Shown one piece after another: positions 4,429 to 42,949 of a DNA stretch of 64,000 nt. The stretch lies in the IMG/VR virus record IMGVR_UViG_3300049448_000712. One strand, 5' to 3'. The translations under genes were made by a program, and so were the position numbers. The DNA is from a virus. Position 1 is the first letter of the stretch, and each line of letters opens with the position of its first letter. Below the pieces are notes generated by a model that made no database searches, had not been told where the DNA came from, and saw nothing but the letters and a program-made list of their open reading frames with translations.

Positions 4429-4598
4429 GAGCCAAATCGGGAAAGGTGAAGATCTCGATGTCCCTCGAAGAGGCGATCAAACTGATGCAGTGCTTCAAAA
4501 GCTTCAATGAAGGCCGGAACGACTACACGCTGATGCAGGAAGTCGGGGCACCGCTGCTCCGAGAGCTCGAAGGGCTTCTCGCAGGGAGAAATACATGA
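4425..4598 (+). CDS. small hypothetical protein (57 aa)
   Basis: Fills the gap, and its stop overlaps the next ATG (ATGA). Confidence 0.3.
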   Translation: MRAKSGKVKISMSLEEAIKLMQCFKSFNEGRNDYTLMQEVGAPLLRELEGLLAGRNT

Positions 4599-6421
4599 AG
4601 CGTATCCAATTCGCCAAAGGGCTCTCGTTCCCCGACGACGCTGCCACGCAGACGTTCGGCTTCGTCGCGCGCAAGGGCGCCGGCAAGTCGTACGCGGCCG
4701 GCAAACTCGTCGAGGGCCTGTACGCGCACGGAGATCAGTTCGTCGTGCTCTCTCCGCTGCCCAACTGGTACGGCCTGCGCCTGGCAGCTGATGGAAAGCG
4801 CCCGGGGCTCGATGTCGTCATTCTCGGCGGCCTGCGCGGAGACATTCCCCTCGACCCCGGCGCCGGCATGCTCGTGGCCAACGCGGTGCTCGATTCAGGG
4901 CGGAGCTTCGTGCTCGACGTGAGCCAGTTCTCGCTGGGCGAGCGCAAGCGCTTCGTCGCGGCTTTCGGCGAGCAGCTCTGGCAGCGGCAGAAGGCGCTTG
5001 AGGACCCTCGGCCCATTCACATCGTGCTCGAGGAGGCGCAGCTCTTCTTGCCCCAGCAGATCTACAAGGGCGACGAGCACATGGTGGGGATCTGGAACGA
5101 GATCGTCCGCCTGGGCCGCAACTGCGGCATCGGCGTGAGCCTCATCACGCAGCGGCCCCAGAGCGTCACGAAGGAGGCCCTCACGCAGGTCGAGTGCCTC
5201 GTGGTGCTGCAGGTCAACGGCCCCCCGGAGAAGAAGGCGCTCAGGGAGTGGATCGTCGAGAAAGGCGCCGACACGAACCTTCTCGAGGAGCTGCCGTTCT
5301 TGAAGCAGGGCGTCGCGTACATCTGGAGCCCCCAATGGCTGGAGCACTTCGGCAAGCATGAGATCTTCCCGAAGTGGACGTTCGATTCTGGTGCCACGCC
5401 GAAGAGCGGCAAGGCGCGGGTGAAGGCGGAGCTCAAGCCGCTCAACCTCGACGAGCTCAAGGCGCAGATGGCGGAGACGGTGAAGAAGTTGGAAGCCAAC
5501 GACCCGGCTGCGCTGAAGAAGCGCGTGCGTGAGCTCGAGCTCGAGGTTGCGAAGAAGGGCGGAGGCGCGAGCGCCGCAGAGCTCAGCCACCTGCAGGCCG
5601 ACGTCAAACAGCAGCTGCGCGCGGCGGACATCTTCCGAGAGTCGCAGCTCGCTCGGTTTCGCCAAGACATGCAGGAGCAGTTGAACGCCCTGTCGAAGTT
5701 CCTTGCGGCGTGGATCTTCACCGAGAAGGGTTTGATGGCCGAGCTCAAGGCGGCCAGCGACGCCGCGTTACCGAACTTTATGCCCTCGAAGCTCAATGGA
5801 AGCACGTCGCGGTCAAAGACTGCCGTAGGCTCTATGGCAGTGGGCTCTCCGCGAAACGGCGACCAGCGCGAGCACCCGGTTCGTAACCGGGCGGTGCCTG
5901 TACGGGAGGTAAAAGCCGAGAGTAGCGCCTCGGCCGAGGGCTCCATCAACAAGGGTGCGCGGGCGATGCTGCGCGCGCTCGCGTCGCGCGAACCGAACGG
6001 GCTCACGAAGAGCCAGGTCGCGACGCTCGCAGGCCTTTCACCGAGCTCCGGCACGTTCAGCACGTACCTCTCGAAGCTCCGAACGCTGGGCTTCATCTAC
6101 GAGAACCCTGCGACGAGTGAAATCACCATTACTCCGACGGGCTCGGGCGCGCTCGGTGAGCGGGTGAGCCAGCCGAGCTCGACAGAGGAGCTCGTCGCGC
6201 AGTGGAAGACGAAGTTCTCCGGCAAGGTCGGCGAGATGCTGCAGGAGCTCGTCGGGGTTTTCCCGGCTTCGCGCAGCAAGGAGGAGCTGGGCGAGATCGT
6301 CGGCATCACGCCGACGAGCGGTACGTTCAGCACGTACCTGTCGAAGCTTCGCAGCAATGGACTTGTCACCGTTGACCGCAGCACGGGGCAGTTGAAGGCG
6401 AGTGAGGATTTGTTCCTGTAA
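4595..6421 (+). CDS. P-loop NTPase with C-terminal tandem winged-helix repeats (DNA-translocating/segregation or packaging-type ATPase candidate)
   Basis: Deviant Walker A FVARKGAGKSY and Walker B HIVLEEAQLF, followed by a coiled-coil region and two repeated segments, GLSPSSGTFSTYLSKLRTLGF and GITPTSGTFSTYLSKLRSNGL. Confidence 0.7.
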   Translation: MKRIQFAKGLSFPDDAATQTFGFVARKGAGKSYAAGKLVEGLYAHGDQFVVLSPLPNWYGLRLAADGKRPGLDVVILGGLRGDIPLDPGAGMLVANAVLDSGRSFVLDVSQFSLGERKRFVAAFGEQLWQRQKALEDPRPIHIVLEEAQLFLPQQIYKGDEHMVGIWNEIVRLGRNCGIGVSLITQRPQSVTKEALTQVECLVVLQVNGPPEKKALREWIVEKGADTNLLEELPFLKQGVAYIWSPQWLEHFGKHEIFPKWTFDSGATPKSGKARVKAELKPLNLDELKAQMAETVKKLEANDPAALKKRVRELELEVAKKGGGASAAELSHLQADVKQQLRAADIFRESQLARFRQDMQEQLNALSKFLAAWIFTEKGLMAELKAASDAALPNFMPSKLNGSTSRSKTAVGSMAVGSPRNGDQREHPVRNRAVPVREVKAESSASAEGSINKGARAMLRALASREPNGLTKSQVATLAGLSPSSGTFSTYLSKLRTLGFIYENPATSEITITPTGSGALGERVSQPSSTEELVAQWKTKFSGKVGEMLQELVGVFPASRSKEELGEIVGITPTSGTFSTYLSKLRSNGLVTVDRSTGQLKASEDLFL

Positions 6422-11304: not shown

Positions 11305-11530
11305 GATCGTCGAGGTGAAGCGCTTCCTGCTCCGGCTCGTCGGAGCCGTGGTACTGGGCGCGCTATGCATCGGACCGGTCCCGCGGCTGTTGAATGCGCG
11401 GGACTCTTTTCTGAACGCCATCGGGCTGTTCATCGTCGTCACGGCGTTTCTGTTTCTGGCGACTGTCGGTTTCGAGGAATTTCGGAAGTGGTACTTCAAG
11501 AAGGACAAAGAGGGAGGAAACAAACAATGA
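11297..11530 (+). CDS. small membrane protein
   Basis: Two hydrophobic segments. Confidence 0.4.
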   Translation: MGKIVEVKRFLLRLVGAVVLGALCIGPVPRLLNARDSFLNAIGLFIVVTAFLFLATVGFEEFRKWYFKKDKEGGNKQ

Positions 11531-12540
11531 AGACGTTCCTGGCGGTACTGGTGTTGGCGAGCTCGGCGTGCACCTGCGGCAAGGTGGACCCAGGTCACGT
11601 GGGCGTCGTGGTGCCGCTGAGCGGCGATGACAAGGGGAAGCTCGAGACGACGAGCAACGGCTGGTACTTCTACTCGTTCAACACGAACGTGTACGAGTTC
11701 CCGGTCTACAACCAGCAGCACAACTGGACCGCATCGCTCGCCGAGGGCAAGCACGGAGTCGACGAGCGGCTGTACTTCGGCGACAAGAACGGTCTGCGGC
11801 TGGGCGCCGACATCGGCGTGCAGTTCCACGTGCCGGCCGACAAGGTGACGCTGCTGTTCAAGACCTACCGCCAGGACCTCGACACCATCCGCGACTCGGT
11901 GCTGAAGATGAGCGTGCGCAACGCGCTGAGCATCACGGCGCAGAACTACACCGCCGAGGAGATCTTCGGCGATAAGCGCGGCGAGTTCTTCGCGAAGGCG
12001 CTTGATCACGTGAAGGAGGAGATGTCGCCGAACGGCATGGAGGTGACGAACCTCTACTTGAACGGCGAGCTCGAGCTCCCTGAGCAGATCAAGGCGACCA
12101 TCCAGGCGAAGCTCCAGGCCACGATGATCGCCCAGCAGAAAGAGAACGAGAAGCGAGCTGTAGAAGCCGAGGCCGCGAAGACTGTCGCTGCAGCGAAGGG
12201 CGTCGCCGAGGCCCAGGTGGCGACCGCCGAGGGTCAGGCCAAGACGGACATCGCCAAGGCCAACGGCGAAGCTGCAGCGTTGGTCGCCGCTGCCAAGGGC
12301 CGCGCTGACGCGCGTGTGCTCGAAGCGACGGCGGAGGCGGCGGCGAACCAGAAGATTGCGGCGAGCCTGACCGGGCCGATCCTCGACTTGAAGAAGCTCG
12401 AGATCGCGGCCGGCGTGCAGAAGGCCTACGCCGCGAAGTGGACGGGCGGAGTTCCGACCACCGTGCTCCCGTCGCAGGCGAACGGGTTTCTGATGGACAT
12501 GCGCGGCATGGACTTGAAGACCGCGCAGGCGTCAAAGTGA
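11527..12540 (+). CDS. SPFH/band-7 (prohibitin/HflK-like) domain lipoprotein
   Basis: Signal peptide MKTFLAVLVLASSAC with a lipobox Cys. The body is band-7-like, followed by an Ala/Glu-rich coiled coil. Confidence 0.65.
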   Translation: MKTFLAVLVLASSACTCGKVDPGHVGVVVPLSGDDKGKLETTSNGWYFYSFNTNVYEFPVYNQQHNWTASLAEGKHGVDERLYFGDKNGLRLGADIGVQFHVPADKVTLLFKTYRQDLDTIRDSVLKMSVRNALSITAQNYTAEEIFGDKRGEFFAKALDHVKEEMSPNGMEVTNLYLNGELELPEQIKATIQAKLQATMIAQQKENEKRAVEAEAAKTVAAAKGVAEAQVATAEGQAKTDIAKANGEAAALVAAAKGRADARVLEATAEAAANQKIAASLTGPILDLKKLEIAAGVQKAYAAKWTGGVPTTVLPSQANGFLMDMRGMDLKTAQASK

Positions 12541-12884
12541 TGGACGCCGAGCGGATTGCGGAGGTCTGCCACGAGGCGAATCGAGTGCTGACTCGGTTCG
12601 CGGGCGACGTGCCCGTGCAGGCACCGTGGGCGAGCATCGACGAGGACATGCGGCAGTCGAGCATCAAGGGCGTTCGGTTCACGCTCGAGAACCCGGATGT
12701 CACCCCGGAGGAGCTTCATGAGGCGTGGTGTGCGGAGCGCCGCTCTCAGGGTTGGGTGTTCGGTGAGACGAAGGATGCCGAGAAGAAAAGGCACCCGGCG
12801 CTGCGTCCATTTGCGGAGTTGCCCGAGGGCACTCGCATCAAAGACGCAGTGTTCCGCGCGGTCGTGAAAGCGCTATCGCCATGA
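12540..12884 (+). CDS. RyR-domain protein
   Basis: HEAWCAERRSQGWVFGETKDAEKKRHPALRPFAELPEGTRIKD matches the RyR domain consensus (GW.yG...D...K.hP.l.pf.eLpe). Confidence 0.5.
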   Translation: MDAERIAEVCHEANRVLTRFAGDVPVQAPWASIDEDMRQSSIKGVRFTLENPDVTPEELHEAWCAERRSQGWVFGETKDAEKKRHPALRPFAELPEGTRIKDAVFRAVVKALSP

Positions 12885-13090
12885 CCAGCGAGTTCGATGT
12901 GGTGCTGAAGGTCAAGGCCGACGGGGGCTACTTCACCTCTCGCGCGATGCTGCACGAGCGAGGCTCGTCGGAGTCTTCGCCGATCGGTTCGACGGGCGAA
13001 TGCACGTCGCGCGAACGCTCGACCGCCGTGTCTTATGCGCTGACCGAGCTGGCCACGCTGCTCGATCGCGGTGCGATCAAACTGCCATGA
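12881..13090 (+). CDS. hypothetical protein
   Basis: ORF in the operon. Confidence 0.4.
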   Translation: MTSEFDVVLKVKADGGYFTSRAMLHERGSSESSPIGSTGECTSRERSTAVSYALTELATLLDRGAIKLP

Positions 13091-13368
13091 GTTGGGCGAA
13101 AGACTGGCCAGACGAGCGGGTCGATCCGTGCTTCGAGAAGCTCAAGCGGGCGCTCGATGTGAGGTGGTGCTTGGATCCAGCGGCGTCCGGTCCTCGAGCT
13201 CGGGCGTTCCTCGGTGACTATGAGCTCGTCATCTACCTCGAAGACGGCGCGTGGTACCTGCATCGAGAAGGTGATCAGGTCGCTGGCGGAGCCAACACGG
13301 AGACCTTCGACGTCGGCATGAAGCGGCTCGTCGCGGTCTACAAGGCCTTCATCGCGACGGATCCGTAG
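13087..13368 (+). CDS. hypothetical protein
   Basis: ATG overlaps the upstream stop. This is the last gene before the terminator. Confidence 0.45.
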   Translation: MSWAKDWPDERVDPCFEKLKRALDVRWCLDPAASGPRARAFLGDYELVIYLEDGAWYLHREGDQVAGGANTETFDVGMKRLVAVYKAFIATDP

Positions 13369-13377
13369 ACAAGAAGA

Positions 13378-13412
13378 AGCCCCCTCGCTCCATGGCCGGG
13401 CGCGAGGGGGCT
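13378..13412. terminator. bidirectional rho-independent-type terminator between convergent genes
   Basis: Perfect 11-bp stem AGCCCCCTCGC / GCGAGGGGGCT with a 13-nt loop. Confidence 0.6.
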
Positions 13413-13433: not shown

Positions 13434-13685
13434 TTACTGGATGATGCTGTGCGGCATCTGCACTTCGATGTCGACGCCGATGGTGTCTCCCAGCGCGCCG
13501 AACGTGACGACGTTCGTGCCCAGCGTCAGGATGCCCGGCACGGCGGTCATCGACGCCGTCGCGTTGTGCTGGAAGATGCGAGCCACCATCGAAGCCGGCG
13601 TCGCCGACAGGTTGTGAGTGAACGTCAGAGCCAGCAGCTTTGAGATCGACTGGTTGATGGCCCAAGTGTAGTACGCGCCCATGTG
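13434..13685 (-). CDS. hypothetical protein (83 aa)
   Basis: Strong RBS AAGGAG 6 nt before the ATG. Sole leftward gene between the terminator and the divergent promoter. Confidence 0.5.
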   Translation of the reverse strand, partial: HMGAYYTWAINQSISKLLALTFTHNLSATPASMVARIFQHNATASMTAVPGILTLGTNVVTFGALGDTIGVDIEVQMPHSIIQ

Positions 13686-13811
13686 AAGCTCCTTTTGGCC
13701 CCAAGGGCCGAGTGAAGCTCTACCGTACCGAAACAGATTGCGTTTGAGAGCGGGTTGTTGGTCGATTTCTATTACAAACCGGTTACAGTGTGATAGTTGG
13801 CCGCCCCCGGC

Positions 13812-13988
13812 ATGCGCAAGCCTCCAAAGCTCATCTCGAAGACGGTGCGGTTCTTCGCCGATGACGTCGAAGAGCTCCAGAAGCTCGCCTTCGCGAAGCG
13901 CTCGAAGTGGCAGACCGAGCTCCGACACCTGGTGCACCGTGCGCTCGGGGATCAAAAACGACTCGCAGCAGGAGGCATCATCAGATGA
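13812..13988 (+). CDS. ribbon-helix-helix (CopG/Arc-like) regulator
   Basis: N-terminal beta-strand KTVRFFADDVEEL followed by two helices. Confidence 0.5.
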   Translation: MRKPPKLISKTVRFFADDVEELQKLAFAKRSKWQTELRHLVHRALGDQKRLAAGGIIR

Positions 13989-14653
13989 GCAACCCGGAGG
14001 GGGAGCTGTCAGTCATAGAGCAGATGTACCGCCAGGCGTGCGAGACGCCCTCGGACATCAACGAGCACTTGCCGCTGCTGCGCGAGCTCGCCTCGAAGTG
14101 CAAGCACGTCACCGAGTTCGGCATGCGCTGGGCGAACGGCAGCACTATCGCCTTCCTCGCCGCGCAGCCCGAGACGTTCATCTCCTGGGACCTCGATCCG
14201 CAAAGCGTCGTCTCGCAGCAAGTGTTCAACCTCGTTCAATCTCGGGGCAAGACGGCCTTCCAGCCGCGCTGCGGCGACACGTTGAAGATCTCCCCCATCG
14301 AGAGCACGGATCTGCTCTTCATCGACACGCTGCACACGGGGAGGCAACTCTTCGCCGAGCTCTGTCGGCATGCCGAGCCCAGGCGCTCGCCACTGCCGGT
14401 GCGGAAGTACCTCGTGTTCCACGACACGGAGACGTTCCGCTACATCGGCGAAGACGGTCAGCCAGGCGGGCTCGTCGATGCGATCCGCGAGTTTCAGGAG
14501 CACTTCGCTTTCCCGCACTGGGTGCTGATCGAGGATCGGAAGAACAACAACGGCCTCGCGGTGATCAAGCACATCTGCGCCGATGGGCACAGCCCCCAGC
14601 GCGTCAACAGCCACTGCGTCAACTGCGCCACCGTTCCCCCGGAGGGCGAGTGA
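13985..14653 (+). CDS. class I SAM-dependent methyltransferase (Methyltransf_24-like)
   Basis: SDINEHLPLLRELA...VTEFGMRWANGSTIAFLAA...LLFIDTLH. ATG overlaps the upstream stop. Confidence 0.5.
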   Translation: MSNPEGELSVIEQMYRQACETPSDINEHLPLLRELASKCKHVTEFGMRWANGSTIAFLAAQPETFISWDLDPQSVVSQQVFNLVQSRGKTAFQPRCGDTLKISPIESTDLLFIDTLHTGRQLFAELCRHAEPRRSPLPVRKYLVFHDTETFRYIGEDGQPGGLVDAIREFQEHFAFPHWVLIEDRKNNNGLAVIKHICADGHSPQRVNSHCVNCATVPPEGE

Positions 14654-15483
14654 GCGATACGACCGAGCTGTACTTGAGCCTGCTCAAGGAAGCGCTGATG
14701 GGCACGATCTACCGGGACCCACCCGTAGACCCGTGGAACGGCATCGTGAAGAACGACAAGGGCGAGGTGGTTAAGTGGGGCCGCGCGCCTGGGGTGCTGT
14801 CCATCGAAGCCGGGCCGTACAACGAGACGATGCGAGTCAAGGGTCTCGACTGGCCCGCCACTGCGCACACGATGATCGGACGACAGAGGCTCGGCGAGCT
14901 GGAGCGCGCGTGCATGGAGGTTCTGCGCGACGGCGTACCGGGCGACTTCGTGGAGACCGGTGTGTGGCGTGGTGGCGCGTGCATCTTCATGGCGGGGCTG
15001 CTGCGCGCGATGCAGTCACCTGACGACGTCCTACGCCGCGTCTTCGTATGTGACTCGTTCGAGGGCCTGCCTCCGCCGAACGTGCAGAAGTACCCGTACG
15101 ACAAGAACGACATCCACTACATGGTTGCGCCGCTCTTGGCTGTGAGCGTGGATCAGGTGCAGGACAATTTCAGGCGGTACGGCCTGCTCGACGAGCGCAT
15201 TGTTTTCGTCAAGGGCTGGTTCAAAGACACGCTGCCCGATCTCGACACGAACCACATTGCGCTGCTTCGGCTAGACGGCGACATGTACGAGAGCACGTGG
15301 GACGCGTTGACCGCGCTGTACTCGAGGGTCTCTCCAGGCGGATGCGTGGTCGTCGATGACTACAACGCAGTGAGAGGATGTCAGAAAGCGGTGCATGCTT
15401 TTCTGGACCAGATCGGCCTGAGTCCTTCCGTTCTTGAAGTGTTCGACAACGGCGGTGCCCATTGGAGAAAGAGCGCAACATGA
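14650..15483 (+). CDS. TylF/MycF-family (macrocin-type) O-methyltransferase
   Basis: ETGVWRGGACIFMAGLL...CDSFEGLP...GWFKDTLP...LLRLDGDMYESTWDAL...VSPGGCVVVDDY matches the TylF family core. GTG start overlaps the upstream TGA. Confidence 0.8.
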   Translation: MSDTTELYLSLLKEALMGTIYRDPPVDPWNGIVKNDKGEVVKWGRAPGVLSIEAGPYNETMRVKGLDWPATAHTMIGRQRLGELERACMEVLRDGVPGDFVETGVWRGGACIFMAGLLRAMQSPDDVLRRVFVCDSFEGLPPPNVQKYPYDKNDIHYMVAPLLAVSVDQVQDNFRRYGLLDERIVFVKGWFKDTLPDLDTNHIALLRLDGDMYESTWDALTALYSRVSPGGCVVVDDYNAVRGCQKAVHAFLDQIGLSPSVLEVFDNGGAHWRKSAT

Positions 15484-16835
15484 TCGAAGCATCGAAGCCG
15501 AACGAACCGTTGGTCGACATCGTGATGCTGGTGCACGACCAAGCGAGCTGGGCCGACCTGGCGATCCGCGCCGTCGAGCACCACACGAAGAACCGCTACC
15601 GGCTGATCATCGTCGACATGGCGAGTCAGGAGCAGAAGACGAAGAATCTGCTCATCACGGCGCAGAGCAACGGGCACACCGTCGTGTGGCTCAACGAGAA
15701 CCGCTCCTTCTCGAACGGCGTCAACGCGGGTGTGCGCGCTGGCAGCGCGAAGTACATCGTGCTCCTCAACGATGACGCGCTCGTGACCGAGGGCTGGGAC
15801 ACGGCGATGCTGCAGGACTGCAGCGAGAAGGGCGTGGGGCTCGTCGGAGCTCGCAGCAACTACGCCTCCGGCGCGCAGGGCGACCCGAGCTTCGTCGGCG
15901 AGCCGCCGTTCCTCGTCTTCGTCTGCGTGGGCCTGCGGCGCGAGGTCTGGAACCACGTCGGGCCGATGGACGAGGAGACCTTCGATGGCTTCAGCTCCGA
16001 AGACCTCGACTACTCCTGGCGGGTGAAGAAGGCCGACCTGCGGCTTAAGGTGAGCAACGCGTACGTGCTCCACGCCGGCAGCCGCACCATCGCGTCGAAG
16101 CACACGACGCCCGAGGCCCAGGAGCGCAACAACCGGAAGTACAACGAGCGGCTGGTGAAGAAATGGGGCGAGGAGTGGTGCCAGCAGAAGTTGAAGCTGA
16201 AGCCGAAGATCCTCGTCTGCTCGTTCCACGCGGAGGAGCACACCCGCGTCGCGTTCCTCGCGAACCTCGTGATGCTCCGTAAGACGGGCGGGCTGCCGTT
16301 CGACTACCACCAGATGACGCGCATGCACATTCAGGTGGCGCGGCAGCTCGTGTGCGATCTCGCGATCGACAACGACTACGACGCGCTGTTCATGCTGGAC
16401 GACGACGGCACGTTCCCGCCCGACACCCTCGCGCGGCTCTACCGGCACGACAAGGAATGCGTCACGGCGCTCGCCTACCAGCGCTTCCCGCCGTACCAGC
16501 CCTGCATCTTCGACACGAACGAGGAGGGCATGGGGCGCCCGGTGGAGGGCGTCGAGAGCACGGGCCTGCGCGAGATCGGGGCCTCGGGCCTGCACTGCGC
16601 GATGATCCGCGTTCCGCTCATCAAGCGTATGCGCGAGGCGAAGATCTCGCACTTCTTCGGCGGCTTCGAGAACAAGTTCGGCGAGGACATCGCCTTCAGT
16701 GCCAACGTGAAGAAGGTCAACGGGAAGATCTACTGCGACACCGACTTCATCGCCGGCCACATCGGCAGCCCCATCGTGGTGAACGACGCGTTCCGCAAAG
16801 ACTGGATCGCGCGCGGCCGGCCGGGGCTCGGATGA
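15480..16835 (+). CDS. two-domain family-2 glycosyltransferase
   Basis: N-terminal GT-A domain (DIVMLVHDQ...IIVDMAS...VLLNDDALVTEGW) and a second GT-A-like domain (FMLDDDGTFPPDTL). Confidence 0.75.
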   Translation: MIEASKPNEPLVDIVMLVHDQASWADLAIRAVEHHTKNRYRLIIVDMASQEQKTKNLLITAQSNGHTVVWLNENRSFSNGVNAGVRAGSAKYIVLLNDDALVTEGWDTAMLQDCSEKGVGLVGARSNYASGAQGDPSFVGEPPFLVFVCVGLRREVWNHVGPMDEETFDGFSSEDLDYSWRVKKADLRLKVSNAYVLHAGSRTIASKHTTPEAQERNNRKYNERLVKKWGEEWCQQKLKLKPKILVCSFHAEEHTRVAFLANLVMLRKTGGLPFDYHQMTRMHIQVARQLVCDLAIDNDYDALFMLDDDGTFPPDTLARLYRHDKECVTALAYQRFPPYQPCIFDTNEEGMGRPVEGVESTGLREIGASGLHCAMIRVPLIKRMREAKISHFFGGFENKFGEDIAFSANVKKVNGKIYCDTDFIAGHIGSPIVVNDAFRKDWIARGRPGLG

Positions 16836-17407
16836 CCACCGTCACGCACCACGACGCCGCCTTCTTCAAGGAGCTGCCCGAAGGCGTGTCGGCCGGCGAA
16901 TGGAGCTACGGCAACCTCCGGGCGCTTCGTCAAGCTGGACCGTGGAAGCGCACCGACATGCGTGTCGGCAAGTTCTGCTCATTGGGCATGGGCTTCTGCG
17001 CGCTGCTGGGCAGCGAGCACAACACCGATTGGGTGTCGACGTACCCGTTCGCTATTGCCGGCCTGAGCGAGCACATCGAGGGACACCCGAAGACGTTCGG
17101 CGACATCGAGATCGGCAACGACGTGTGGGTCGGCATGAACGTCACCGTGTTCTCCGGCACGCGCGTCGGCGATGGAGCTGTCATCGCAGCTGGCTCGTAC
17201 CTGCGCGGCGATGTGCCCCCCTACTCCATCTACGGCGGCAACCCGGCCCGGCTGCTCTCGTTCAGGTTCCGGCCTGAGGTGATCCAGCGCCTGCAGCAGA
17301 TCGCCTGGTGGAACTGGCCCCTCGAGCGCATCAAGAAAGCGGTGCCGCTGCTCAGCCAGAAGAAGGTGGAGCTCTTCATCGAAGCGGTTGAGCGAGGTGA
17401 GCTTTGA
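16832..17407 (+). CDS. hexapeptide-repeat acetyltransferase, Vat/CatB (xenobiotic acetyltransferase) type
   Basis: GKFCSLGMGFCALLGSEHNTDWVSTYPF and a left-handed beta-helix repeat segment. Confidence 0.75.
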   Translation: MTTVTHHDAAFFKELPEGVSAGEWSYGNLRALRQAGPWKRTDMRVGKFCSLGMGFCALLGSEHNTDWVSTYPFAIAGLSEHIEGHPKTFGDIEIGNDVWVGMNVTVFSGTRVGDGAVIAAGSYLRGDVPPYSIYGGNPARLLSFRFRPEVIQRLQQIAWWNWPLERIKKAVPLLSQKKVELFIEAVERGEL

Positions 17408-17628
17408 GCCCGGAAGACTTCGAGGAGCTCCAGGCGATCGTCGCCGAAGAGCTCGGCATCCCCTTTGAGGATTTGCGTACGACGACCGAGCTCGTCGGCG
17501 ACTCCCTGACGCTCACGGAGATCATTGTGCGCGTCGAGACGGAGTTCAGCATCCTCATCTCGGACGAAGAGTCGTCGAAGGTGAAGACGTTCATGGATCT
17601 GCACTCGCTGGTGGAGAGCAAGCGATGA
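17404..17628 (+). CDS. acyl/peptidyl carrier protein-like
   Basis: LVGDSLTLTEIIVRVETEF resembles the ACP DSL phosphopantetheine site in a four-helix context. TTG start overlaps the upstream stop. Confidence 0.5.
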   Translation: MSPEDFEELQAIVAEELGIPFEDLRTTTELVGDSLTLTEIIVRVETEFSILISDEESSKVKTFMDLHSLVESKR

Positions 17629-17849
17629 TCTGCTGGCTCATGGGTTGGCAGAAAGCAAAGGCCACTGAGCTTCCGCTCTGGAAGCCCGTCGTCTATGGCC
17701 AGCTGCCTGACCTTTTGCCGGGCGAGCCCTGCAAGCCGACGCTGGTGGCACCGCTGAAAGAGAACGTGACCTGCACGCGCTGCAGAGAGGCGTACGCGAA
17801 GCGCAACGAGACGCTGATCGACGCGTACCTCAAAGGACACGGGCGATGA
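17625..17849 (+). CDS. hypothetical protein
   Basis: ORF in the operon. Confidence 0.4.
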   Translation: MICWLMGWQKAKATELPLWKPVVYGQLPDLLPGEPCKPTLVAPLKENVTCTRCREAYAKRNETLIDAYLKGHGR

Positions 17850-18109
17850 CGAAGTTCACGCAGAAGTCGTTCACCGTCGGCGGCTCGAGCAAGGCGTACA
17901 GCGACAACTACGATTCGGTCTTCCGTCGAGAGCCTGAGCCTGCGCCTTCGGAGTGCAAGCCAGGCTTCGCGCTGCCCAAGGCCGACATTCACTACGGATC
18001 CGAGCTCAAGTACGTGTACACGGCCGGCGTGACGCACTCGAAGTTCAAAGCGGGCACTCGCGTCGAGGTCTACGAGTGCGTCGACTGCGGCGACCGGTGG
18101 GAAGTCTAA
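17846..18109 (+). CDS. hypothetical protein
   Basis: ORF in the operon; carries CVDCGD. Confidence 0.4.
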   Translation: MTKFTQKSFTVGGSSKAYSDNYDSVFRREPEPAPSECKPGFALPKADIHYGSELKYVYTAGVTHSKFKAGTRVEVYECVDCGDRWEV

Positions 18110-18372
18110 TGAAGACCTTCCCGATCATGGCGGTACGCGATGGCCATCGCGCCAAGACGAAGGACTTCACGATCCCTTGGGCGCTGATCGCCCCTCACGA
18201 GAAGCAAGCGCAGCGGAATCATTACCAGACGCTCGAGAGGCTGGCGGAGCGTGGTGGTCTCTCGGCGCGGGAAGCGCTCGCCGTCATCGAAGACCGGCCC
18301 TTCGGAGACTGCCTTGAAGATGAGGAAGCCGAGTTGATGCTTGCCTCTCTGGCGCAACCCCACGTAATGTAG
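18109..18372 (+). CDS. hypothetical protein
   Basis: ATG overlaps the upstream stop. Confidence 0.4.
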   Translation: MKTFPIMAVRDGHRAKTKDFTIPWALIAPHEKQAQRNHYQTLERLAERGGLSAREALAVIEDRPFGDCLEDEEAELMLASLAQPHVM

Positions 18373-18398: not shown

Positions 18399-18620
18399 AT
18401 GGCGCGGAAGAAGCATCGTCGTTCTCGTCACGCTCGTTGCAAGTACGGCAAGCTGAAGCACCCGCGCGGTCGGCGGATCTGTCGCGTGCGTCCGTCGCGT
18501 CGGCGTCGTCCGCTGACGAGCTCGCGTCGCGAAGCGATCAAGTACGAGCGCGACCTCGAGCGCGAGATGATCGCCCGCCACAAGGCGTCGCTCGGCCGGC
18601 TGCGTCGGCGCCGTCGCTAA
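18399..18620 (+). CDS. small highly basic protein, copy 1 of the CKYGKLKHPRGRRIC family
   Basis: RBS aaggag upstream. The protein is about 40% Arg/Lys. Confidence 0.45.
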   Translation: MARKKHRRSRHARCKYGKLKHPRGRRICRVRPSRRRRPLTSSRREAIKYERDLEREMIARHKASLGRLRRRRR

Positions 18621-18644: not shown

Positions 18645-18824
18645 ATGGCTCGTCGGCGTTGCAAGTACGGGAAGCTGAAGCACCCGCGCGGTCGTCGCAT
18701 CTGCAGGCTCCGCCCCACGCGGCGGAAGCGCTGGAGCGAGAGCCGGCGCTACAAGAAGGACCTGCAGCGCGAGTTCGATCGCCGTGAGAACGCGGCGATG
18801 GGTCGGCACCGGAAGAGGCGGTAG
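18645..18824 (+). CDS. small highly basic protein, copy 2 (tandem paralog)
   Basis: RBS ggagaccaccaacATG. Shares the motif RCKYGKLKHPRGRRICR with copy 1. Confidence 0.45.
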   Translation: MARRRCKYGKLKHPRGRRICRLRPTRRKRWSESRRYKKDLQREFDRRENAAMGRHRKRR

Positions 18825-18827: not shown

Positions 18828-19568
18828 GTGGCCTTCTACGGAAACCGCGCGCTGCGCGGCAGCCTGGGCGCCTTCGGAGCGTTCGCCGGCGGAGGTCGCC
18901 CCATCTTCGGGCCCTTCGCTTTCGCAGAGTCGTGGAGCTCGGACGACTTCGAGAGCGCCACCCAGTTCACCAACTGGGTGAAGCCGTTCCTCGATCAGGT
19001 CGCACGCACGGACCTCACGTTCTCGCCGCTGAGCGCTTTCACCAAGGCTCGAGCGGAGGCGAACTACAACCTCTGGGCGAAGGCGGCGCTCAACGGAGAC
19101 CCCCAGGCGCAGGCGTACAAGGACAGCATCGACTCGCAGATGACTTCGCTCATCCATCAAGCCGACTCGCTCTCCCTGTCCGGCGCGAACGGCCACCGCA
19201 GCGAGGGCACGGAGGTCGCGCGGTACGACGCGTTCAACTCCATCATCGCCCTTGCCTCGCAGCTCGCTTCGTCTTCTCCGTCGCCCGTGGCGCCGAAAGC
19301 GAACGTGGATCTCACCGGCCGGGTGTTGGTGGGCAGCGACACGAGCTCGGGCGGCACCGCCGCGAGCAAGGCGCAGGCTGCGGCGACAGGTGGCGACATC
19401 GTCACCAACGGCTCCCTGCAGCAAGGGAACCCCTTGCCCTCGAGCGGCCCGCCGTGGGCGCTCATCATCGGCCTGGGCAGCGTGGCCCTCGTCGGGGGAG
19501 TGATGCTCCTGCGGCGGCACAAGGCCGCGTCCGTGAGCGGGTACCGACGTCGAAGGAGCCACCGATGA
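18828..19568 (+). CDS. membrane protein with C-terminal GPPW-TM-GYRRRxRR tail
   Basis: C-terminus ...GPPWALIIGLGSVALVGGVMLLRRHKAASVSGYRRRRSHR; GTG start. Confidence 0.5.
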   Translation: MAFYGNRALRGSLGAFGAFAGGGRPIFGPFAFAESWSSDDFESATQFTNWVKPFLDQVARTDLTFSPLSAFTKARAEANYNLWAKAALNGDPQAQAYKDSIDSQMTSLIHQADSLSLSGANGHRSEGTEVARYDAFNSIIALASQLASSSPSPVAPKANVDLTGRVLVGSDTSSGGTAASKAQAAATGGDIVTNGSLQQGNPLPSSGPPWALIIGLGSVALVGGVMLLRRHKAASVSGYRRRRSHR

Positions 19569-19918
19569 GACGCCTGGGGCGGCACTACTTCGGCGAGGGA
19601 GTTGCGCCCAGCGACGCGGCTGTCGCTGACGCGGGCCCGGCGTCCGGGGACTACTCGGACCCGTACGCCTGGAACCCGAACTGGAACCAGCCGACGCCGA
19701 CGACGGGCGCGACCGTCAGGACGCCGGCTGGCATGGTGCCGCAGCTGCTGGCGGACCCGAGCCAGGTCGACATCAACCCCGACGGCACGCCGACGTACCT
19801 CGCTGCTCCAGGCCTGCCGAGCTGGGTGCTGCCGGTGGCGATCGGCGCCGGGGCCTTCCTGCTGCTGGGCGGCGGGGCTCTCATTTGGGGCGTGAGTCGT
19901 CGGAAGCGGAGGCGCTGA
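19564..19918 (+). CDS. membrane protein with C-terminal TM plus poly-Arg tail
   Basis: C-terminus ...PGLPSWVLPVAIGAGAFLLLGGGALIWGVSRRKRRR. Confidence 0.5.
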
Positions 19919-20253
19919 TGGCGCTCTACAAGTTGGACCGGATGGGGCTCGTCGCGGCCGGCGCGAGCACGGTGCTGTTCAGCAAGTCACCGATGCTCAG
20001 GGTGAACGTGCCTTCGATCAGCCCTGCCGCGCCGCTGTCCGCCCCTGTCAACACGCCGGGGCCGGTCGACAGCGCTGCAGTCACCGCCTCGGGGGCAGCG
20101 AGCGGCGACCCTGGCGCGATGTCCGATGGTCCTCCCTGGGGGCTGATCGTCGGCCTGGGGCTCGCTGGCGTGGCGGCCATCGGCGGCGTGGTGTATTGGC
20201 GCCGTCGGAAGAAGAGCTCGACAGCCGGCTACCGGCGCCGAGCGCGTCGGTGA
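19918..20253 (+). CDS. membrane protein with C-terminal GPPW-TM-GYRRRxRR tail
   Basis: C-terminus ...GPPWGLIVGLGLAGVAAIGGVVYWRRRKKSSTAGYRRRARR. Confidence 0.5.
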   Translation: MALYKLDRMGLVAAGASTVLFSKSPMLRVNVPSISPAAPLSAPVNTPGPVDSAAVTASGAASGDPGAMSDGPPWGLIVGLGLAGVAAIGGVVYWRRRKKSSTAGYRRRARR

Positions 20254-26995: not shown

Positions 26996-27355
26996 CTACT
27001 CGCCGGACAAAAACTTATTGCTCGCGCTGAGTGCCTCGACGGCCTGCTCGATCACCTGCTCGATGCTGTCGCCGGGGTCCGCTCCGACGAGCCGCGCCAG
27101 TCGCAGCGCGGTCTCGACAGGGATCTTCGGGCTCACGTCCGAGGCATCGAGGTACCGAATGGCGGAACAGGTGAGGCACTCGAACACGAAGATCTCGCGC
27201 GGTCGGCCACTCTCCCATTTCATCTCGATGAAGTAGACCTTCCACTTGTTCGGACACGTTAACGATCGGCACTCGAGGGCGTCGCGTTCCGTCAACAGGC
27301 TCTTCAGATCCATCGTCGTCACCATGTCGTTTTCACCTCGCTCGGGGTGCACCAC
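26996..27355 (-). CDS. hypothetical protein with CxxC pairs
   Basis: ORF. Confidence 0.35.
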   Translation of the reverse strand: MVHPERGENDMVTTMDLKSLLTERDALECRSLTCPNKWKVYFIEMKWESGRPREIFVFECLTCSAIRYLDASDVSPKIPVETALRLARLVGADPGDSIEQVIEQAVEALSASNKFLSGE

Positions 27356-27786
27356 ACCCTGACGAGCTCGACGCCGGCCTTCTTCAGGTTCTCGAACACC
27401 TTCGGGAAGCGCTCGCGACCAGCCGCGAGCACCGCCTCCGCGTCATGCATACCCTGCAGCAGGATCGTGCTGTTGCAGCCGCCGCGCGTGTCTCCCTGTG
27501 TGCGGTCCCACCACTGCACGGCGCTGTAGCCGTTCGGCAGCACGTGGTGTAGGTACTGCCCCTGCGGGCACTCCTCGGAGCGGTACTGGCGGTTGTCGTC
27601 GCGCGGCCCGTAGCCGCTGAAGAAAATCTGCTCGGTGCGGTCACCGCGACGCGGTGCCAGCGTGCCGTCGATGTGCCGGCGCTCGGGGCCGTACGTCGTC
27701 ACGCGTTCATCGTACGGCGCGGGCCCGCCTGAATCGTGAAGGTAGTGCCCTGCGCGACCGACTACGCCGAAGAAGAAGCAGTTCAT
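27319..27786 (-). CDS. hypothetical protein
   Basis: Internal start MNCFFFGVVGRAGHYLHD. Confidence 0.4.
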   Translation of the reverse strand: MNCFFFGVVGRAGHYLHDSGGPAPYDERVTTYGPERRHIDGTLAPRRGDRTEQIFFSGYGPRDDNRQYRSEECPQGQYLHHVLPNGYSAVQWWDRTQGDTRGGCNSTILLQGMHDAEAVLAAGRERFPKVFENLKKAGVELVRVWCTPSEVKTTW

Positions 27787-27965
27787 TTTCGCCCCGCCCA
27801 TGCGTAGTTGACGTTGTGCCTTCGGTTCCACGCGCCCGCGCACTTGTGGGTGCAGACGACGGCGTGGGCGTTGGCGAGCCCCTGGTAGAGCTTCAGCGGT
27901 TCGCCGCACACGGCGCACGCTCGGGCCGTGTGCTTGGGCGGCCGGTGGAGCAACCGGTCTTTCAT
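27783..27965 (-). CDS. small zinc-ribbon protein
   Basis: CAVCGEP...CTHKC. Confidence 0.3.
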   Translation of the reverse strand: MKDRLLHRPPKHTARACAVCGEPLKLYQGLANAHAVVCTHKCAGAWNRRHNVNYAWAGRK

Positions 27966-28774: not shown

Positions 28775-29898
28775 GGGGTCTCCTTCGTGCAGCTGCACTC
28801 CAACCAGTCGAAGTGGCCTCCGCCGATAGCGCCGCGCTTTAGAGGCTGGTTGCATCTCGCGCACGTCGGCGCGGTCGCCGATGGCGGGGGGAGGGCGCGA
28901 ATCATCCGCGCCAGACGCGCCCTTTCGGACCGTGGCTGAGCGCTATCGATTGCTTTCGCCGCCGCCTCTCGGCAGTCGAGCCAACTCGCGCACGTCGGCT
29001 CCAGCCGCACGCTCGCGAGACGTCCCTTGATGATGCCGCCGAGCGCCGGCTGGATTCGCGAGAAGTCACCGTTGAGAGCGTCGATGACACGCGCACGCTC
29101 TTCCTCGCGCACTCGCTCCTCGAATGCCGCTCGGGACTTGCGGAAGTCGTCTGGGGTCAGTGTTTGACCGGACGTCAGCGGCACGCATGTGCCGAACGCT
29201 TCGTCAAAGGCCGTGGCGGTCGCCCATCGCTCTTGCTCGCGCACCCGCTCCCGCTCCCGCTCGGCCTCCAGGGCGGCGCCGGTCTTGTGGTTGGCGAGGG
29301 CGGACTCGATGACCTCCAACTCCGCCGCGAGTAGACGCTCCCGGTCGATGCGTCGCAGCGCCCCCGCTAGAGCTTCGGCGTCGGCCTCGGCGGCGAGGGC
29401 GCGAGCCGTCCACGTGGCCAAGTCGCGACTCAGGTCGCCGATGTTGCCGACATTGAGGTAGGGGTTTCGATGCCAACCGCCCGGACACGCCGAGCCGCCG
29501 CCATCGGTCCATTGCAATTCGAGGCCGGCGCGTCGCAGTTCGGCCTCTATGCGGTCGGTCACCCACGCTTTACGCGCCACCTCGGACTTTGCGCGCTCGA
29601 CTGCCTCGTCCCTCTCCGCCGTCACCTTCGCTGCGTAGTGGGCATCGAGCTCGGCGCGGTCTCGAGCCGCTTTCGTCTCCGCCTTTGCGTGCTCGAGCTC
29701 GAGTGCGTGGCTCTTCTCCGCCTCGGCCGCGAGCGCCTTCACGCCTTGAAGCTGCAACCGGTAGCCATCGCGCTCTGACACGAGTTGCTCAATCGAGCCC
29801 ACCAGAAGATCACAGTCGATCGTCACCTCGCTGCCCATGGTTTGGGCTCGGAGTGCAGCGACCAGCAACTTCTCCACGTCCCACCGTTTCTTGCTCAC
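28771..29898 (-). CDS. coiled-coil hypothetical protein (375 aa)
   Basis: Long ORF, Ala/Glu/Arg-rich. Confidence 0.5.
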   Translation of the reverse strand: MSKKRWDVEKLLVAALRAQTMGSEVTIDCDLLVGSIEQLVSERDGYRLQLQGVKALAAEAEKSHALELEHAKAETKAARDRAELDAHYAAKVTAERDEAVERAKSEVARKAWVTDRIEAELRRAGLELQWTDGGGSACPGGWHRNPYLNVGNIGDLSRDLATWTARALAAEADAEALAGALRRIDRERLLAAELEVIESALANHKTGAALEAERERERVREQERWATATAFDEAFGTCVPLTSGQTLTPDDFRKSRAAFEERVREEERARVIDALNGDFSRIQPALGGIIKGRLASVRLEPTCASWLDCREAAAKAIDSAQPRSERARLARMIRALPPPSATAPTCARCNQPLKRGAIGGGHFDWLECSCTKETP

Positions 29899-30518
29899 TC
29901 GAGCTCCTTGACGATGCCCGCCATGACCCTCTGCCCTTCGACGAGCCGCTTGCCCACCACCTCGGCGTAGACCTGGGTGCTGCCAGGGTCCTTGTGTCCG
30001 AGCCAGTCCTGCACGAACACGAGGTCATCACCGCGCTCGAGCATGTGCGTCGCGACGGAGTGCTTGAGCACGTGGGGGTGCCCGTGGACGTTCAAGTCGA
30101 GGCCGGCGCGCTGAGCAGCTCGGCGCCAGTACCGGTACACGTTCCACCTGTCGAGCGGTGCTTTGGGCTCGTCGGGGTGAGGGAAGAGGTAGGGGCTCTT
30201 CGGCCGCTCTTTGACCCAGGCCTTCAAGTCGGCGAGCACCCACGGCTCGAGTTTGTAGGTCCGGCCCATGGAGCCTTTGAGCCGCAGCACGTCGAGCGTC
30301 CCGCGCTTGGTGTCGAAGTGCTCCAGCGGCTGCAGGCCGACCTCAGAGGCGCGCAGCGCGCAGTAGTACATGACCTTGATGATGCAGCGCTCCTCGAGCT
30401 CGAGCGTGCGTTCGATGGCCAGGCGCAGCTGCTCGACGGTGAGATAGCCCTTGCGGATGCGCCCCTTCGCGCTGCCGTCCTGGGTGCGGAGCTTCGGGTA
30501 GCTCTTAGGGGGCATCGG
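29895..30518 (-). CDS. tyrosine recombinase/integrase (short, catalytic-domain type)
   Basis: HVLKHSVATHMLERGDDLVFVQDWLGHKDPGSTQVYAEV matches box II of the tyrosine recombinase family (H..R..H...LGH......Y). Confidence 0.8.
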   Translation of the reverse strand, partial: PMPPKSYPKLRTQDGSAKGRIRKGYLTVEQLRLAIERTLELEERCIIKVMYYCALRASEVGLQPLEHFDTKRGTLDVLRLKGSMGRTYKLEPWVLADLKAWVKERPKSPYLFPHPDEPKAPLDRWNVYRYWRRAAQRAGLDLNVHGHPHVLKHSVATHMLERGDDLVFVQDWLGHKDPGSTQVYAEVVGKRLVEGQRVMAGIVKELE

Positions 30519-36398: not shown

Positions 36399-37049
36399 AT
36401 GAGTTTCACCCTCGCGCCCATCTACCTCGACGACGCGCGCGAGCTCTGCGTGCGCTACCACGGGTACGCCTCGGCTGGCGGAGTCGCGGTCTACGCGTTC
36501 GGAGTTCACGAGGGCGGCCGGCTAGTCGCCGCGTACGCCTGGCAGCCCCCGCCACCAGGTGCAGCCTCCTCGGTCTGCCCTGAGGCGCCGTACGGAGTGC
36601 TCGCGCTGTCGCGCATGGTGGCGGTGCCGAAGGCGGAGCGGGCTCTCAAGCACGTGAGCAAGCCGCTCAAGTACCAGATGAAGCGGCTGATCGATCGCAC
36701 CCGCTGGCCCGTGCTGGTGACGTACAGCGACGAGGGCGAGGGGCACAACGGGTTCGTCTACCAGTGCAGCGGCTGGGAGAAGACGAACCGCGCCGAGGTG
36801 AAGGTCTTCGAGAAGGACGGCAAGCGCGCCTCGGCGTACTCCAACGGTGGCTTCGGGAAGCGCGAGCTGGACGCGGCGGGCAAGACTTGGGTACAGCGGT
36901 GGGAGAACTGGGTCTGCCCAAGGGGTGAGGCGAAGAAGTGGATGATGGAGGGCGGCTGGGAGCGCGTGGCGATCGAGGGGAAGGTGTGGCGCTCGGGCAA
37001 CCCGGCTCACACGCTCCGACGCAGGCCGAAGCAGATGACGTTGCTGTGA
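36399..37049 (+). CDS. hypothetical protein
   Basis: ORF. Confidence 0.45.
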   Translation: MSFTLAPIYLDDARELCVRYHGYASAGGVAVYAFGVHEGGRLVAAYAWQPPPPGAASSVCPEAPYGVLALSRMVAVPKAERALKHVSKPLKYQMKRLIDRTRWPVLVTYSDEGEGHNGFVYQCSGWEKTNRAEVKVFEKDGKRASAYSNGGFGKRELDAAGKTWVQRWENWVCPRGEAKKWMMEGGWERVAIEGKVWRSGNPAHTLRRRPKQMTLL

Positions 37050-42019: not shown

Positions 42020-42044
42020 ACTCAGCGCTAGAGCGGGTACTTCA

Positions 42045-42943: not shown

Positions 42944-42949
42944 GAGCAG

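Follow-up and report, generated by a model that had tools for sequence, protein, structure and literature searches.

Positions 13812-17628 (plus strand) of IMGVR_UViG_3300049448_000712, an uncultured bacterial virus, form a genuine viral operon that builds and decorates a short sugar chain, adding methyl and acyl groups. We give roughly even chances to the reading in which this virus-encoded, cytoplasmic operon assembles and tailors a glycan carried most likely by the virus's own proteins, an acceptor that we infer. The interval contains six translationally coupled genes, encoding in order an RHH-like protein, a putative methyltransferase (MT1), a TylF-family methyltransferase, a double GT-A glycosyltransferase (GT2), an XAT-class acyltransferase and an acyl carrier protein (ACP). 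Their open reading frames lie at the coordinates first assigned, with 4-nt start/stop overlaps at 13985 (ATGA), 14650 (GTGA), 15480 (ATGA), 16832 (ATGA), 17404 (TTGA) and 17625 (ATGA), and a codon-usage gene caller recovered the same cassette genes. The original prediction of a sugar-building and tailoring cassette on a viral contig is thus borne out by family matches, and the tight overlaps that it described are real, but it counted seven genes where the interval has six. The features of the region are listed below; the window, here and throughout, is the whole stretch of DNA analysed (64,000 nt).

13378..13412, GC-rich hairpin with 14-nt arms (93% complementary), between the convergent genes 13087-13368 (plus strand) and s82 (minus strand)
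13434..13682, minus strand, s82, a stand-alone 82-aa protein with a predicted beta-sandwich, transcribed away from the cassette
13683..13811, no strand assigned, divergent control region between s82 and the RHH-like gene
13812..13988, plus strand, RHH-like small protein (58 aa), conserved in all loci and always divergent to s82
13985..14653, plus strand, MT1, probable class I SAM-dependent methyltransferase (Methyltransf_24-like), core gene
14650..15483, plus strand, TylF/MycF/NovP-family sugar O-methyltransferase (TylF), accessory (slot) gene
15480..16835, plus strand, bifunctional glycosyltransferase with two GT-A domains (GT2), core gene
16832..17407, plus strand, XAT-class (Vat/CatB-like) hexapeptide O-acyltransferase (XAT; PF00132), accessory gene
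17404..17628, plus strand, ACP with a DSL site for phosphopantetheine attachment, an accessory gene found together with XAT
17625-17849, 17846-18109 and 18109-18372, plus strand, three small coupled ORFs with ATGA overlaps, outside the conserved core

The glycosyltransferase matches PF00535 at 51.6 bits (cut-off 23.3; residues 14-125), and its AlphaFold2 model shows two GT-A domains, each keeping an invariant DxD-type acidic motif, as anticipated by its first description as a double-domain GT2. The model resembles bifunctional polymerases, sharing the GT-A/GT-A arrangement of E. coli K4 chondroitin polymerase (2z86) and the Pasteurella heparosan synthase PmHS2 (8vh7) at an identity of about 15%; those two enzymes polymerise capsule glycosaminoglycans together with an export machinery that is absent here. 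GT2 would transfer sugars from nucleotide sugars to an acceptor, two in succession or as a short repeat.

Two further genes had been described as SAM methyltransferases, one of them TylF-type. The latter assignment is secure, with a match to PF05711 (E=1e-90; 304 bits against a cut-off of 23) spanning profile positions 2-264 of 264, and 233 bits to PDB 5i10/4cdz (NovP and MycF). The segments ETGVWRGG (the SAM-binding glycine motif), LRLDGDMYEST and VVDDY align with 5i10, and the acidic metal-binding residues D209, D211 and D236 are invariant in the family alignment, so that the protein is a full-length family member with its metal and SAM motifs intact. Its identity to MtfB of Mycobacterium avium glycopeptidolipid synthesis is 46%; TylF, MycF, NovP and MtfB belong to antibiotic or glycolipid clusters, whereas the context here is viral. 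TylF would O-methylate a sugar already attached, probably a 6-deoxyhexose. MT1 is probably a class I SAM-dependent methyltransferase to judge from its sequence, an assignment that is weak for the window copy, which scores 17 bits against a Methyltransf_24 cut-off of 26.3. Ten of 12 MT1 relatives match the same family at E<=0.1 (best 4.4e-6), and identity across loci is 51-80%; a search of the PDB gave no sequence relative, and an hhalign profile comparison with TylF was not significant. MT1 may methylate the glycosyltransferase product.

The last two genes of the interval would supply acylation. XAT aligns with CatB8 (E=3e-33) through its H-x-x-D-W loop and WWNWP tail, and matches phrog_16087 (E=2e-44); CatB, VatD and PaXAT share with it the left-handed beta-helix, the extended loop that bears the catalytic His, and the helix at the C terminus with its WWxWP segment. 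Against the NCBIfam equivalogs it scores 128.9 for Vat (cut-off 300) and 117.9 for CatB (cut-off 350), so that, of the Vat/CatB acetyltransferase originally called, the XAT class stands and the resistance enzyme does not. XAT also differs from characterised XATs in its place within a glycan cassette and in its recurrent pairing with ACP-like proteins, a pairing that is not characteristic of them. The carrier protein with a DSL site was called correctly: it matches PF00550 at 27.8 bits (cut-off 20.8), phrog_5934 (E=8e-9) and ACPs in the PDB (E=3e-7), and its DSL serine aligns with the DSL motif of E. coli ACP. ACP-like genes flank XAT in two relatives as well, L045 (phrog_5934, E=9.5e-5) and L017 (PF00550, E=0.003). 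No phosphopantetheinyl transferase or acyl-loading enzyme was found among the approximately 65 window proteins scanned, and host enzymes, rather than viral ones, could load ACP. XAT would then O-acylate the glycan, possibly with an acyl group taken from the adjacent ACP instead of CoA.

Comparison with relatives separates these genes into two kinds. In 24 distinct metagenomic loci with unrelated flanking genes the same core returns, made up of s82, the RHH-like gene and MT1, followed by a slot of variable content and then GT2. Among the loci the slot is empty or is filled by TylF, by XAT (with an ACP-like gene next to it in three cases), by a HAD-like protein or by an NDP-sugar dehydratase; in two relatives it includes a signal-peptide protein. 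TylF is present in eight of 23 loci and XAT in nine of 23, usually 5' of GT2. Relatives whose GT2 is 68-73% identical have five different slot contents, and accessory-gene identity (40-51%) does not follow that of the core. TylF, XAT and ACP are therefore swappable accessories of a conserved core, an organization that the original prediction overlooked, and the slot genes would serve to diversify the glycan. The slot enzyme of the NDP-sugar 4,6-dehydratase/epimerase family (PF01370, E=8e-41) links the module with the chemistry of nucleotide sugars and 6-deoxyhexoses.

Upstream of the operon lies s82, which was missing from the earlier gene list and which proves to be an invariant partner of the module, occurring in all 17 of the 17 loci that extend far enough. 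Its predicted structure is a beta-sandwich that most resembles H-type lectins (Helix pomatia agglutinin, discoidin I, SLL-2) and the lectin-like C-terminal tips of phage tailspikes and R-pyocin fibres, at an identity of at most 15%. The protein carries no signal peptide and never forms part of a larger fibre protein. We see in s82 a candidate lectin-like glycan binder, or else a candidate acceptor of the glycan. Next to its gene lies the hairpin 13378-13412, whose folding energies are -29.7 and -31.0 kcal/mol for the two strands (z between about -3.1 and -3.3); a U-rich tail follows it on the minus strand only. The hairpin is probably the terminator of s82; it is strong, as first described, but was called bidirectional, and the U-rich tail marks one direction only. 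As for the divergent promoter predicted nearby, no sigma-70 consensus promoter was found in the control region 13683..13811, although a divergent gene, s82, does face the cassette. That region contains a leader hairpin at 13697-13709, just 5' of the s82 Shine-Dalgarno sequence (leader fold -17.6 kcal/mol, z -2.0), and a GTACGGT element at 13722-13729 (minus strand) that occurs once in the window. Almost all relatives have a leader hairpin, with stem sequences that differ, and ACCGTA/GGTAC repeats are likewise recurrent. We picture s82 as expressed from its own promoter, its transcript stabilised by the leader hairpin and ended at the terminator.

The 58-aa protein across the control region was predicted to be an RHH regulator. 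Searches of Pfam, NCBIfam and PHROG returned no match, and a PDB profile search gave no RHH protein; the putative RHH fold is suggested only by a beta-alpha-alpha pattern in the sequence. We presume that the protein is a regulator, and it would probably control the divergent promoters. In one relative (L017), s82 and the RHH-like gene lie inverted together, as one block. Profile searches of the ORFs thus upheld the early family calls for TylF, GT2, the XAT class and ACP, placed MT1 weakly, and gave no support to RHH.

Several lines of evidence point to a viral glycan pathway: the identities of the enzymes, the recurrence of the core amid unrelated flanks, the apparent solubility of the cassette proteins (none has a hydrophobic segment of membrane-spanning length), and the likeness of the modelled s82 fold to H-type lectins and the carbohydrate-binding tips of receptor-binding proteins. 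Two known systems and the absence of close copies from the bacterial genomes searched point the same way. In mycobacteriophage Corndog (cluster O), modification of the capsid and tail tube has been reported for gp35-gp38 (Cresawn 2015, PMC4351075; Freeman 2023 as cited in PMC11600133, PMC12363180). Like TylF and GT2 in the window, the Corndog genes form a tandem, tightly packed O-methyltransferase and glycosyltransferase operon, in which gp35 matches Pfam TylF (7.6e-13) and Methyltransf_24 (1.8e-9), and the GT2-like and GT25 matches of gp37 and gp38 are weak, at or below Pfam cut-offs. The claim that the cassette is not a described module was therefore only partly right, a TylF-type O-methyltransferase adjoining glycosyltransferases being already known in Corndog. 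At the sequence level the two are distant: there is no tblastn match between the window glycosyltransferase and Corndog or Che8, and MT1 shows no BLAST-level similarity to Corndog proteins (hhalign against gp35, probability 0.3). Unlike Corndog, the window virus has its two GT-A domains fused in one protein, as well as XAT, ACP, a swappable slot and the s82/RHH partner.

The second parallel, by published description, is the chlorovirus PBCV-1, in which A064R (two rhamnosyltransferase domains and a methyltransferase) acts with A061L to cap the capsid glycan with di-O-methylated rhamnose; these proteins are soluble, cytoplasmic and expressed early (PMC9614988). The combination of two glycosyltransferase activities with two SAM-dependent O-methylations is like that proposed for the window cassette, but PBCV-1 is a eukaryotic giant virus with differently fused domains and neither acetyltransferase nor ACP. 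By analogy with Corndog and the chloroviruses, the acceptor would most likely be one or more viral proteins, and s82 may itself be that acceptor or may recognise and bind the glycan once it is complete. Among the roles first suggested, virion glycosylation is the best supported. Counting against it is the setting of the cassette among nucleotide-metabolism genes, whereas that of Corndog lies between portal and protease in a structural operon. The lack of sequence similarity to the Corndog and Che8 glycosyltransferases, the weak placement of MT1 in the window and the failure to find a loading enzyme for ACP weigh on the same side. No recognisable virion genes were found in this viral lineage.

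The soluble enzymes might instead modify the host envelope, using as cytoplasmic substrates the lipid-linked precursors of O-antigen, teichoic acid or EPS; such a change could exclude superinfecting phages, keep progeny from adsorbing to debris or bring about lysogenic conversion. O-antigens and glycopeptidolipids typically contain O-methyl and O-acetyl groups and 6-deoxyhexoses, M. avium mtfB is the best match in the "phages" collection, and the signal-peptide protein in the slot of two relatives and a small tyrosine recombinase encoded in the window are also compatible with such a role. We nevertheless regard it as rather unlikely, because the module has no flippase, Gtr-type membrane component or transporter, its proteins look soluble, and an invariant, cytoplasmic, lectin-like s82 without a signal peptide would be left unexplained. 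Moreover, a search of one genome per species across 185,579 bacterial and archaeal species found no close GT2 homologue, and thus no prophage copies, which speaks against the prophage and lysogenic conversion originally envisaged; cultured phages likewise gave no close copy of the cassette.

Anti-defence or host takeover, in which a host protein or small molecule is glycosylated, methylated or acylated, or a soluble glycan bound by s82 blunts host defence, seems to us improbable. The module does resemble a mobile accessory island with unrelated flanks, the quick replacement of slot genes points to an arms race, and L013 carries an Acb2/Tad1-type gene within 8 kb; against this, PADLOC returned no match and nothing found indicates a specific host target. 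We know of no anti-defence precedent for this enzyme set.

A further reading is DNA hypermodification, whereby the glycosyltransferase would decorate a modified base and sugar variety would evade modification-dependent restriction enzymes, consistent with a restriction arms race. The cassette follows genes for ThyX and a dNMP kinase, relatives also have MazZ-like and NUDIX proteins, and the window encodes Mom-like and QueD proteins. These last lie about 20 kb from the cassette, however, and the thymidylate synthase is ThyX (PF02511, E=1.5e-41) and not a ThyA-type hydroxymethylase, so that no hydroxymethyl handle is evident and the hypermodification pathway once proposed is not supported; a TAGT match was insignificant (E=0.036 over 26 residues). 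We know of no case in which a TylF-type enzyme or an ACP-linked acyltransferase works on DNA sugars, and we consider this reading very unlikely. Antibiotic or xenobiotic cargo, with a Vat/CatB-like enzyme resisting streptogramin or chloramphenicol and TylF, the glycosyltransferase and ACP tailoring or inactivating a macrolide-like product, is the least credible: CatB and Vat are the closest characterised relatives of XAT, its homologues in cultured phages are Vat genes of Streptococcus suis prophages, and TylF, MycF and NovP belong to antibiotic pathways, but XAT falls far under both equivalog cut-offs, occupies the glycan slot of nine loci, in the company of NDP-sugar enzymes, and has no polyketide or NRPS genes beside it in the module.

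The coupled chain runs on past ACP through the three small ORFs at 17625-17849, 17846-18109 and 18109-18372, for which searches of Pfam, PHROG and NCBIfam gave no significant family match. Relatives of the ORF starting at 17846 lie a few genes 3' of GT2 in four other loci (L013, L015, L019 and L044).

The cassette consists of six plus-strand ORFs that fill 13812–17628, neighbors being joined by 4-nt start/stop overlaps (ATGA at 13985, GTGA at 14650, ATGA at 15480, ATGA at 16832, TTGA at 17404, and ATGA at 17625); the same six genes came back from a gene caller that works on codon usage and had been trained on loci related to this one. The tightly overlapping run of the original prediction is thus borne out, with six rather than seven genes in this interval, and the coupling runs on past the cassette through three small ORFs without known function, as far as 18372. 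The relevant features are:

13378–13412: hairpin upstream of the cassette
13434–13682 (−): s82, divergent gene for an 82-aa protein
13697–13709: hairpin in the s82 leader
13722–13729 (−): GTACGGT element
13812–13988 (+): RHH-like gene
13985–14653 (+): MT1, putative Methyltransf_24-like methyltransferase
14650–15483 (+): TylF, O-methyltransferase
15480–16835 (+): GT2, glycosyltransferase with two GT-A domains
16832–17407 (+): XAT, acetyltransferase
17404–17628 (+): ACP, carrier protein

G+C content is ~64% over the entire window, with no distinct composition in the cassette, and no membrane-spanning segment was found in any cassette protein. The upstream hairpin, which had been taken for a strong bidirectional terminator, is indeed strong (~−30 kcal/mol, z ~−3) but has a U-rich tail on the minus strand only. 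As to the expected divergent promoter, no sigma-70 consensus was found near the cassette, but a divergent gene that had previously been overlooked, s82, is present.

To place the cassette among its relatives, we assembled 24 distinct loci (labeled L013, L017, and so on) from IMG/VR, JGI, NCBI, and Logan contigs, with uniform gene calling followed by clustering. GT2 has 206 metagenomic homologs at 52–73% identity, from soil and freshwater and from an uncultured high-GC virus lineage. None of 50,697 phage records matched when 12 kb of the window was used as a megablast query, and tblastn revealed no cultured phage relatives of GT2, MT1, or a 608-aa ATPase. Among 185,579 bacterial and archaeal species (one genome each), no close copy of GT2 was found; what the GTDB species representatives did contain were remote GT2 matches of a single domain (24–29% identity), and we therefore down-weight the lysogenic conversion that had been proposed.

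Every locus long enough has the same gene order: s82, which points the other way, is followed by the RHH-like gene and MT1, then by a slot of varying content, and last by GT2. Both s82 and the RHH-like gene occur in all loci reaching far enough (17/17; the RHH-like ORFs of L030 and L033 were recovered by reading the intergenic sequence), and in L017 the pair is flipped together as one unit. The flanks differ completely from locus to locus (helicases, nucleotide-metabolism genes, unknowns), indicating that the four-gene core travels as a module. In the 23 distinct loci where the MT1–GT2 interval was readable, the slot held the following.

Contents of the slot between MT1 and GT2
Nothing: 4 loci
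TylF: 8 loci (in L034, located after GT2)
XAT: 9 loci (after GT2 in the window only)
Small HAD-like protein: 5 loci
NDP-sugar 4,6-dehydratase/epimerase: 1 locus, plus a partial copy beside GT2 in L023 (PF01370, E = 8e-41)
Secreted protein, function unassigned: 2 loci

Besides the window, L017 (PF00550, E = 0.003) and L045/L046 (phrog_5934, E = 9.5e-5) also have an ACP-like gene adjoining XAT. The window's nearest relatives (GT2 68–73% identical) display five different slot contents, and the identity of accessory TylF and XAT to the window copies (40–51%) does not track that of the core (GT2 50–73%, MT1 51–80%). We conclude that TylF, XAT, and ACP are exchangeable accessories of a conserved core rather than steps of a fixed seven-gene pathway; the locus resembles a miniature O-antigen cluster, with its fixed core and exchangeable tailoring genes. 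A further family of 128–160 aa lies within or beside the slot in two relatives (L019:9561–9995; L021:4434–4820), and has a paralog elsewhere in the window (27319–27801(−)).

The assignments made for the individual enzymes held to differing degrees. TylF covers its Pfam profile end to end (E = 1e-90) and scores 233 bits against NovP and MycF, two O-methyltransferases of known structure; the alignment includes the metal and SAM motifs, confirming the TylF-type assignment. Of the two proposed SAM methyltransferases, MT1 is the less secure: its match to Methyltransf_24 is weak (17 bits, below the 26.3 cut-off), 10 of 12 relatives match that family (best E = 4.4e-6), and its profile had no significant match in the PDB. 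MT1 does not look like a diverged TylF; hhalign against the TylF family was not significant. In the window, L014, and L022, MT1 ends in an extension (window 14560–14650), missing from most relatives, with a C-x-x-x-H ... C-x-x-C pattern that may bind zinc. XAT aligns to CatB8, VatD, and PaXAT (E = 3e-33) across the catalytic-His loop and WWNWP tail, which supports the XAT class, but its scores fall far short of what NCBIfam requires of a genuine Vat or CatB resistance enzyme. The carrier likewise stands as predicted: with 74 aa and the DSL serine, ACP is a genuine acyl carrier protein. The RHH regulator fared worst, as the gene has no family support and a PDB profile search gave no RHH protein.

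The divergent gene s82 has 246 homologs, nearly all of 80–86 aa and on the same contigs as GT2, and none contains a Pfam domain. When an HMM was run over 1.84 billion representatives, s82 turned up only as a stand-alone small protein; the few large matches, considered as possible s82 domains of larger proteins, proved to be short repeated low-complexity sequence only. Residues T20, T22, H23, L25, R35, T46, G55-T56-N57, T60, D71, and E73 are invariant. AlphaFold2 predicts a confident six-stranded beta-sandwich (pLDDT 87), whose best structural matches are the lectin-like tips of phage tailspikes and H-type lectins; BFVD added weak matches of that same kind. A separate terminator hairpin serves the gene, as does a strong Shine–Dalgarno sequence, directly 5′ of which almost every locus carries a GC-rich leader hairpin (with equivalents of the window's in L013, L014, L015, L016, L019, L031, L044, and L047). 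The stem sequence varies by locus, with differences that look compensatory, and the hairpin probably serves in mRNA stabilization or translation control. The 64-kb window has a single GTACGGT, which lies between s82 and the RHH-like gene, and ACCGTA/GGTAC-type repeats recur at the same intergenic place in relatives; the RHH-like protein may use such elements as operators. This invariant lectin-like partner looks to be under dedicated control.

The cassette proteins make up a predicted soluble enzyme set able to transfer two sugars from nucleotide-sugar donors, to methylate once or twice with SAM and, with a carrier protein close by, to O-acylate; the nucleotide-sugar dehydratases of relatives point to 6-deoxyhexose chemistry. 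We favor the reading that the cassette glycosylates a viral protein, holding it at about even confidence, because Corndog, the one phage precedent backed by experiment, has like enzymes, because the chlorovirus proteins A064R and A061L follow the same logic on a capsid glycan, and because the module is missing from the cellular genomes searched (one per species). For mycobacteriophage Corndog, modification of capsid and tail tube is reported for the gp35–38 cassette (Freeman 2023, as cited in PMC11600133 and PMC12363180). Corndog gp35 is also of TylF/Methyltransf_24 type, and gp37 and gp38 have weak glycosyltransferase-family matches; hhalign of MT1 against gp35 was not significant. In chlorovirus PBCV-1, A064R and A061L supply two glycosyltransferases plus two methyltransferases for the capsid glycan (PMC9614988), the same pairing of activities as is predicted for the cassette.

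Under viral-protein glycosylation, the glycan would be assembled on a viral protein, s82 would be its acceptor or its reader, XAT might draw its acyl group from acyl-ACP, and the RHH-like protein would control the divergent promoters. More speculatively, and we think this rather doubtful, the module could be a self-contained "write and read" system of a type not seen before, in which the double glycosyltransferase, MT1, and the exchangeable tailoring enzymes make a lineage-specific methylated or acylated glycan that either sits directly on s82 or is recognized by it. The glycan–s82 combination would then form a diversifiable surface or recognition element of a lineage none of whose virion genes fits a known family, and the acyl group would come from the phage ACP, a donor that no XAT-class enzyme is known to use.

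Modification of the host envelope is possible but not likely: TarP and RmlT, structural neighbors of GT2, speak for it, but prophage copies were not found, the module has no membrane or export component, and its lectin-like partner s82 is cytoplasmic. Anti-defense chemistry has the module's mobility as its sole positive point and no PADLOC match to defense-system libraries, making it improbable. DNA glycosylation was weighed given the ThyX, dNMP kinase, Mom-like, and QueD genes in the window; with neither a hydroxymethylase nor homology to any DNA glycosyltransferase, it is very unlikely, as is the suggested hypermodification pathway. Antibiotic modification is barely credible, with XAT scoring sub-threshold and positioned in a glycan slot.

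The claim that this is not a described module was overstated, since phage O-methyltransferases with glycosyltransferases have already been described. What appears to be undescribed is the conserved core of s82, RHH, MT1, and double GT, the slot in which its tailoring genes are exchanged, the recurring XAT–ACP pair, and the spread of the module within an uncultured virus lineage. That giant viruses glycosylate with enzymes of their own is well documented; among phages, we know of experimental cases only in a few mycobacteriophages. The module places this chemistry in an uncultured high-GC virus lineage that is widespread, as a small defined system in which five enzymes and a carrier protein are joined by a candidate lectin or acceptor and a candidate regulator. 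It allows one to ask what phage glycans are for where the host bears no antibodies, and whether an XAT acyltransferase accepts an ACP-bound donor.

By gene content, the window looks viral, encoding a DNA methyltransferase, ThyX (PF02511, E = 1.5e-41), a dNMP kinase, a HerA/DUF87-like ATPase (a candidate packaging enzyme), Mom-like and QueD proteins, a short tyrosine recombinase (29895–30515(−); 206 aa, catalytic domain only; PF00589, E = 9e-29; a possible integrase or resolvase), and RyR-domain and SPFH proteins. It contains no tRNA or Rfam family, and Pfam and PHROGs recognized neither a terminase nor a portal nor a capsid of any known family, its large ORFs included; the lineage may be other than conventional tailed phage. 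The regions concerned in the virion-gene search are 4595–6421 and 42000–62000 (minus strand), and a putative structural block comprises several signal-peptide proteins (45838–50872) and unknowns of ~300 aa (55652–58478). The Mom-family gene (36399–37049; PF25680, E = 9e-15) adjoins the QueD/PTPS homolog (37325–37804; PF01242, E = 3.5e-20), a probable DNA-modification module apart from the cassette, followed by a 218-aa protein whose sole match is phrog_15826 (unknown function). Directly upstream of the cassette module lie an SPFH/band-7-like lipoprotein (11527–12540) and the RyR-domain protein (12540–12884; PF02026, E = 4e-11), the latter gene being the upstream neighbor in L013 as well. Downstream, two small, extremely arginine-rich adjacent paralogs (18399–18620 and 18645–18824) have KYGKLKHPRGRRICR in common, have relatives in L013 and L015, and could serve in DNA condensation. 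Several unrelated proteins across the lineage share a C-terminus in which a hydrophobic helix is followed, after ~10 residues, by a conserved (A/S)-G-Y-(R/K)-R-R-x-R-R tail; this signature could anchor the proteins in a membrane with a tail that binds DNA, or it could direct sorting:

Window: 18828–19568, 19918–20253, 53923–54327(−), 54637–55116(−), 60926–61303(−)
Relatives: L013:13677–14384, L013:15098–15454, L014:14357–14986, L015:6110–6844, L017:3127–4023, L019:13962–14651
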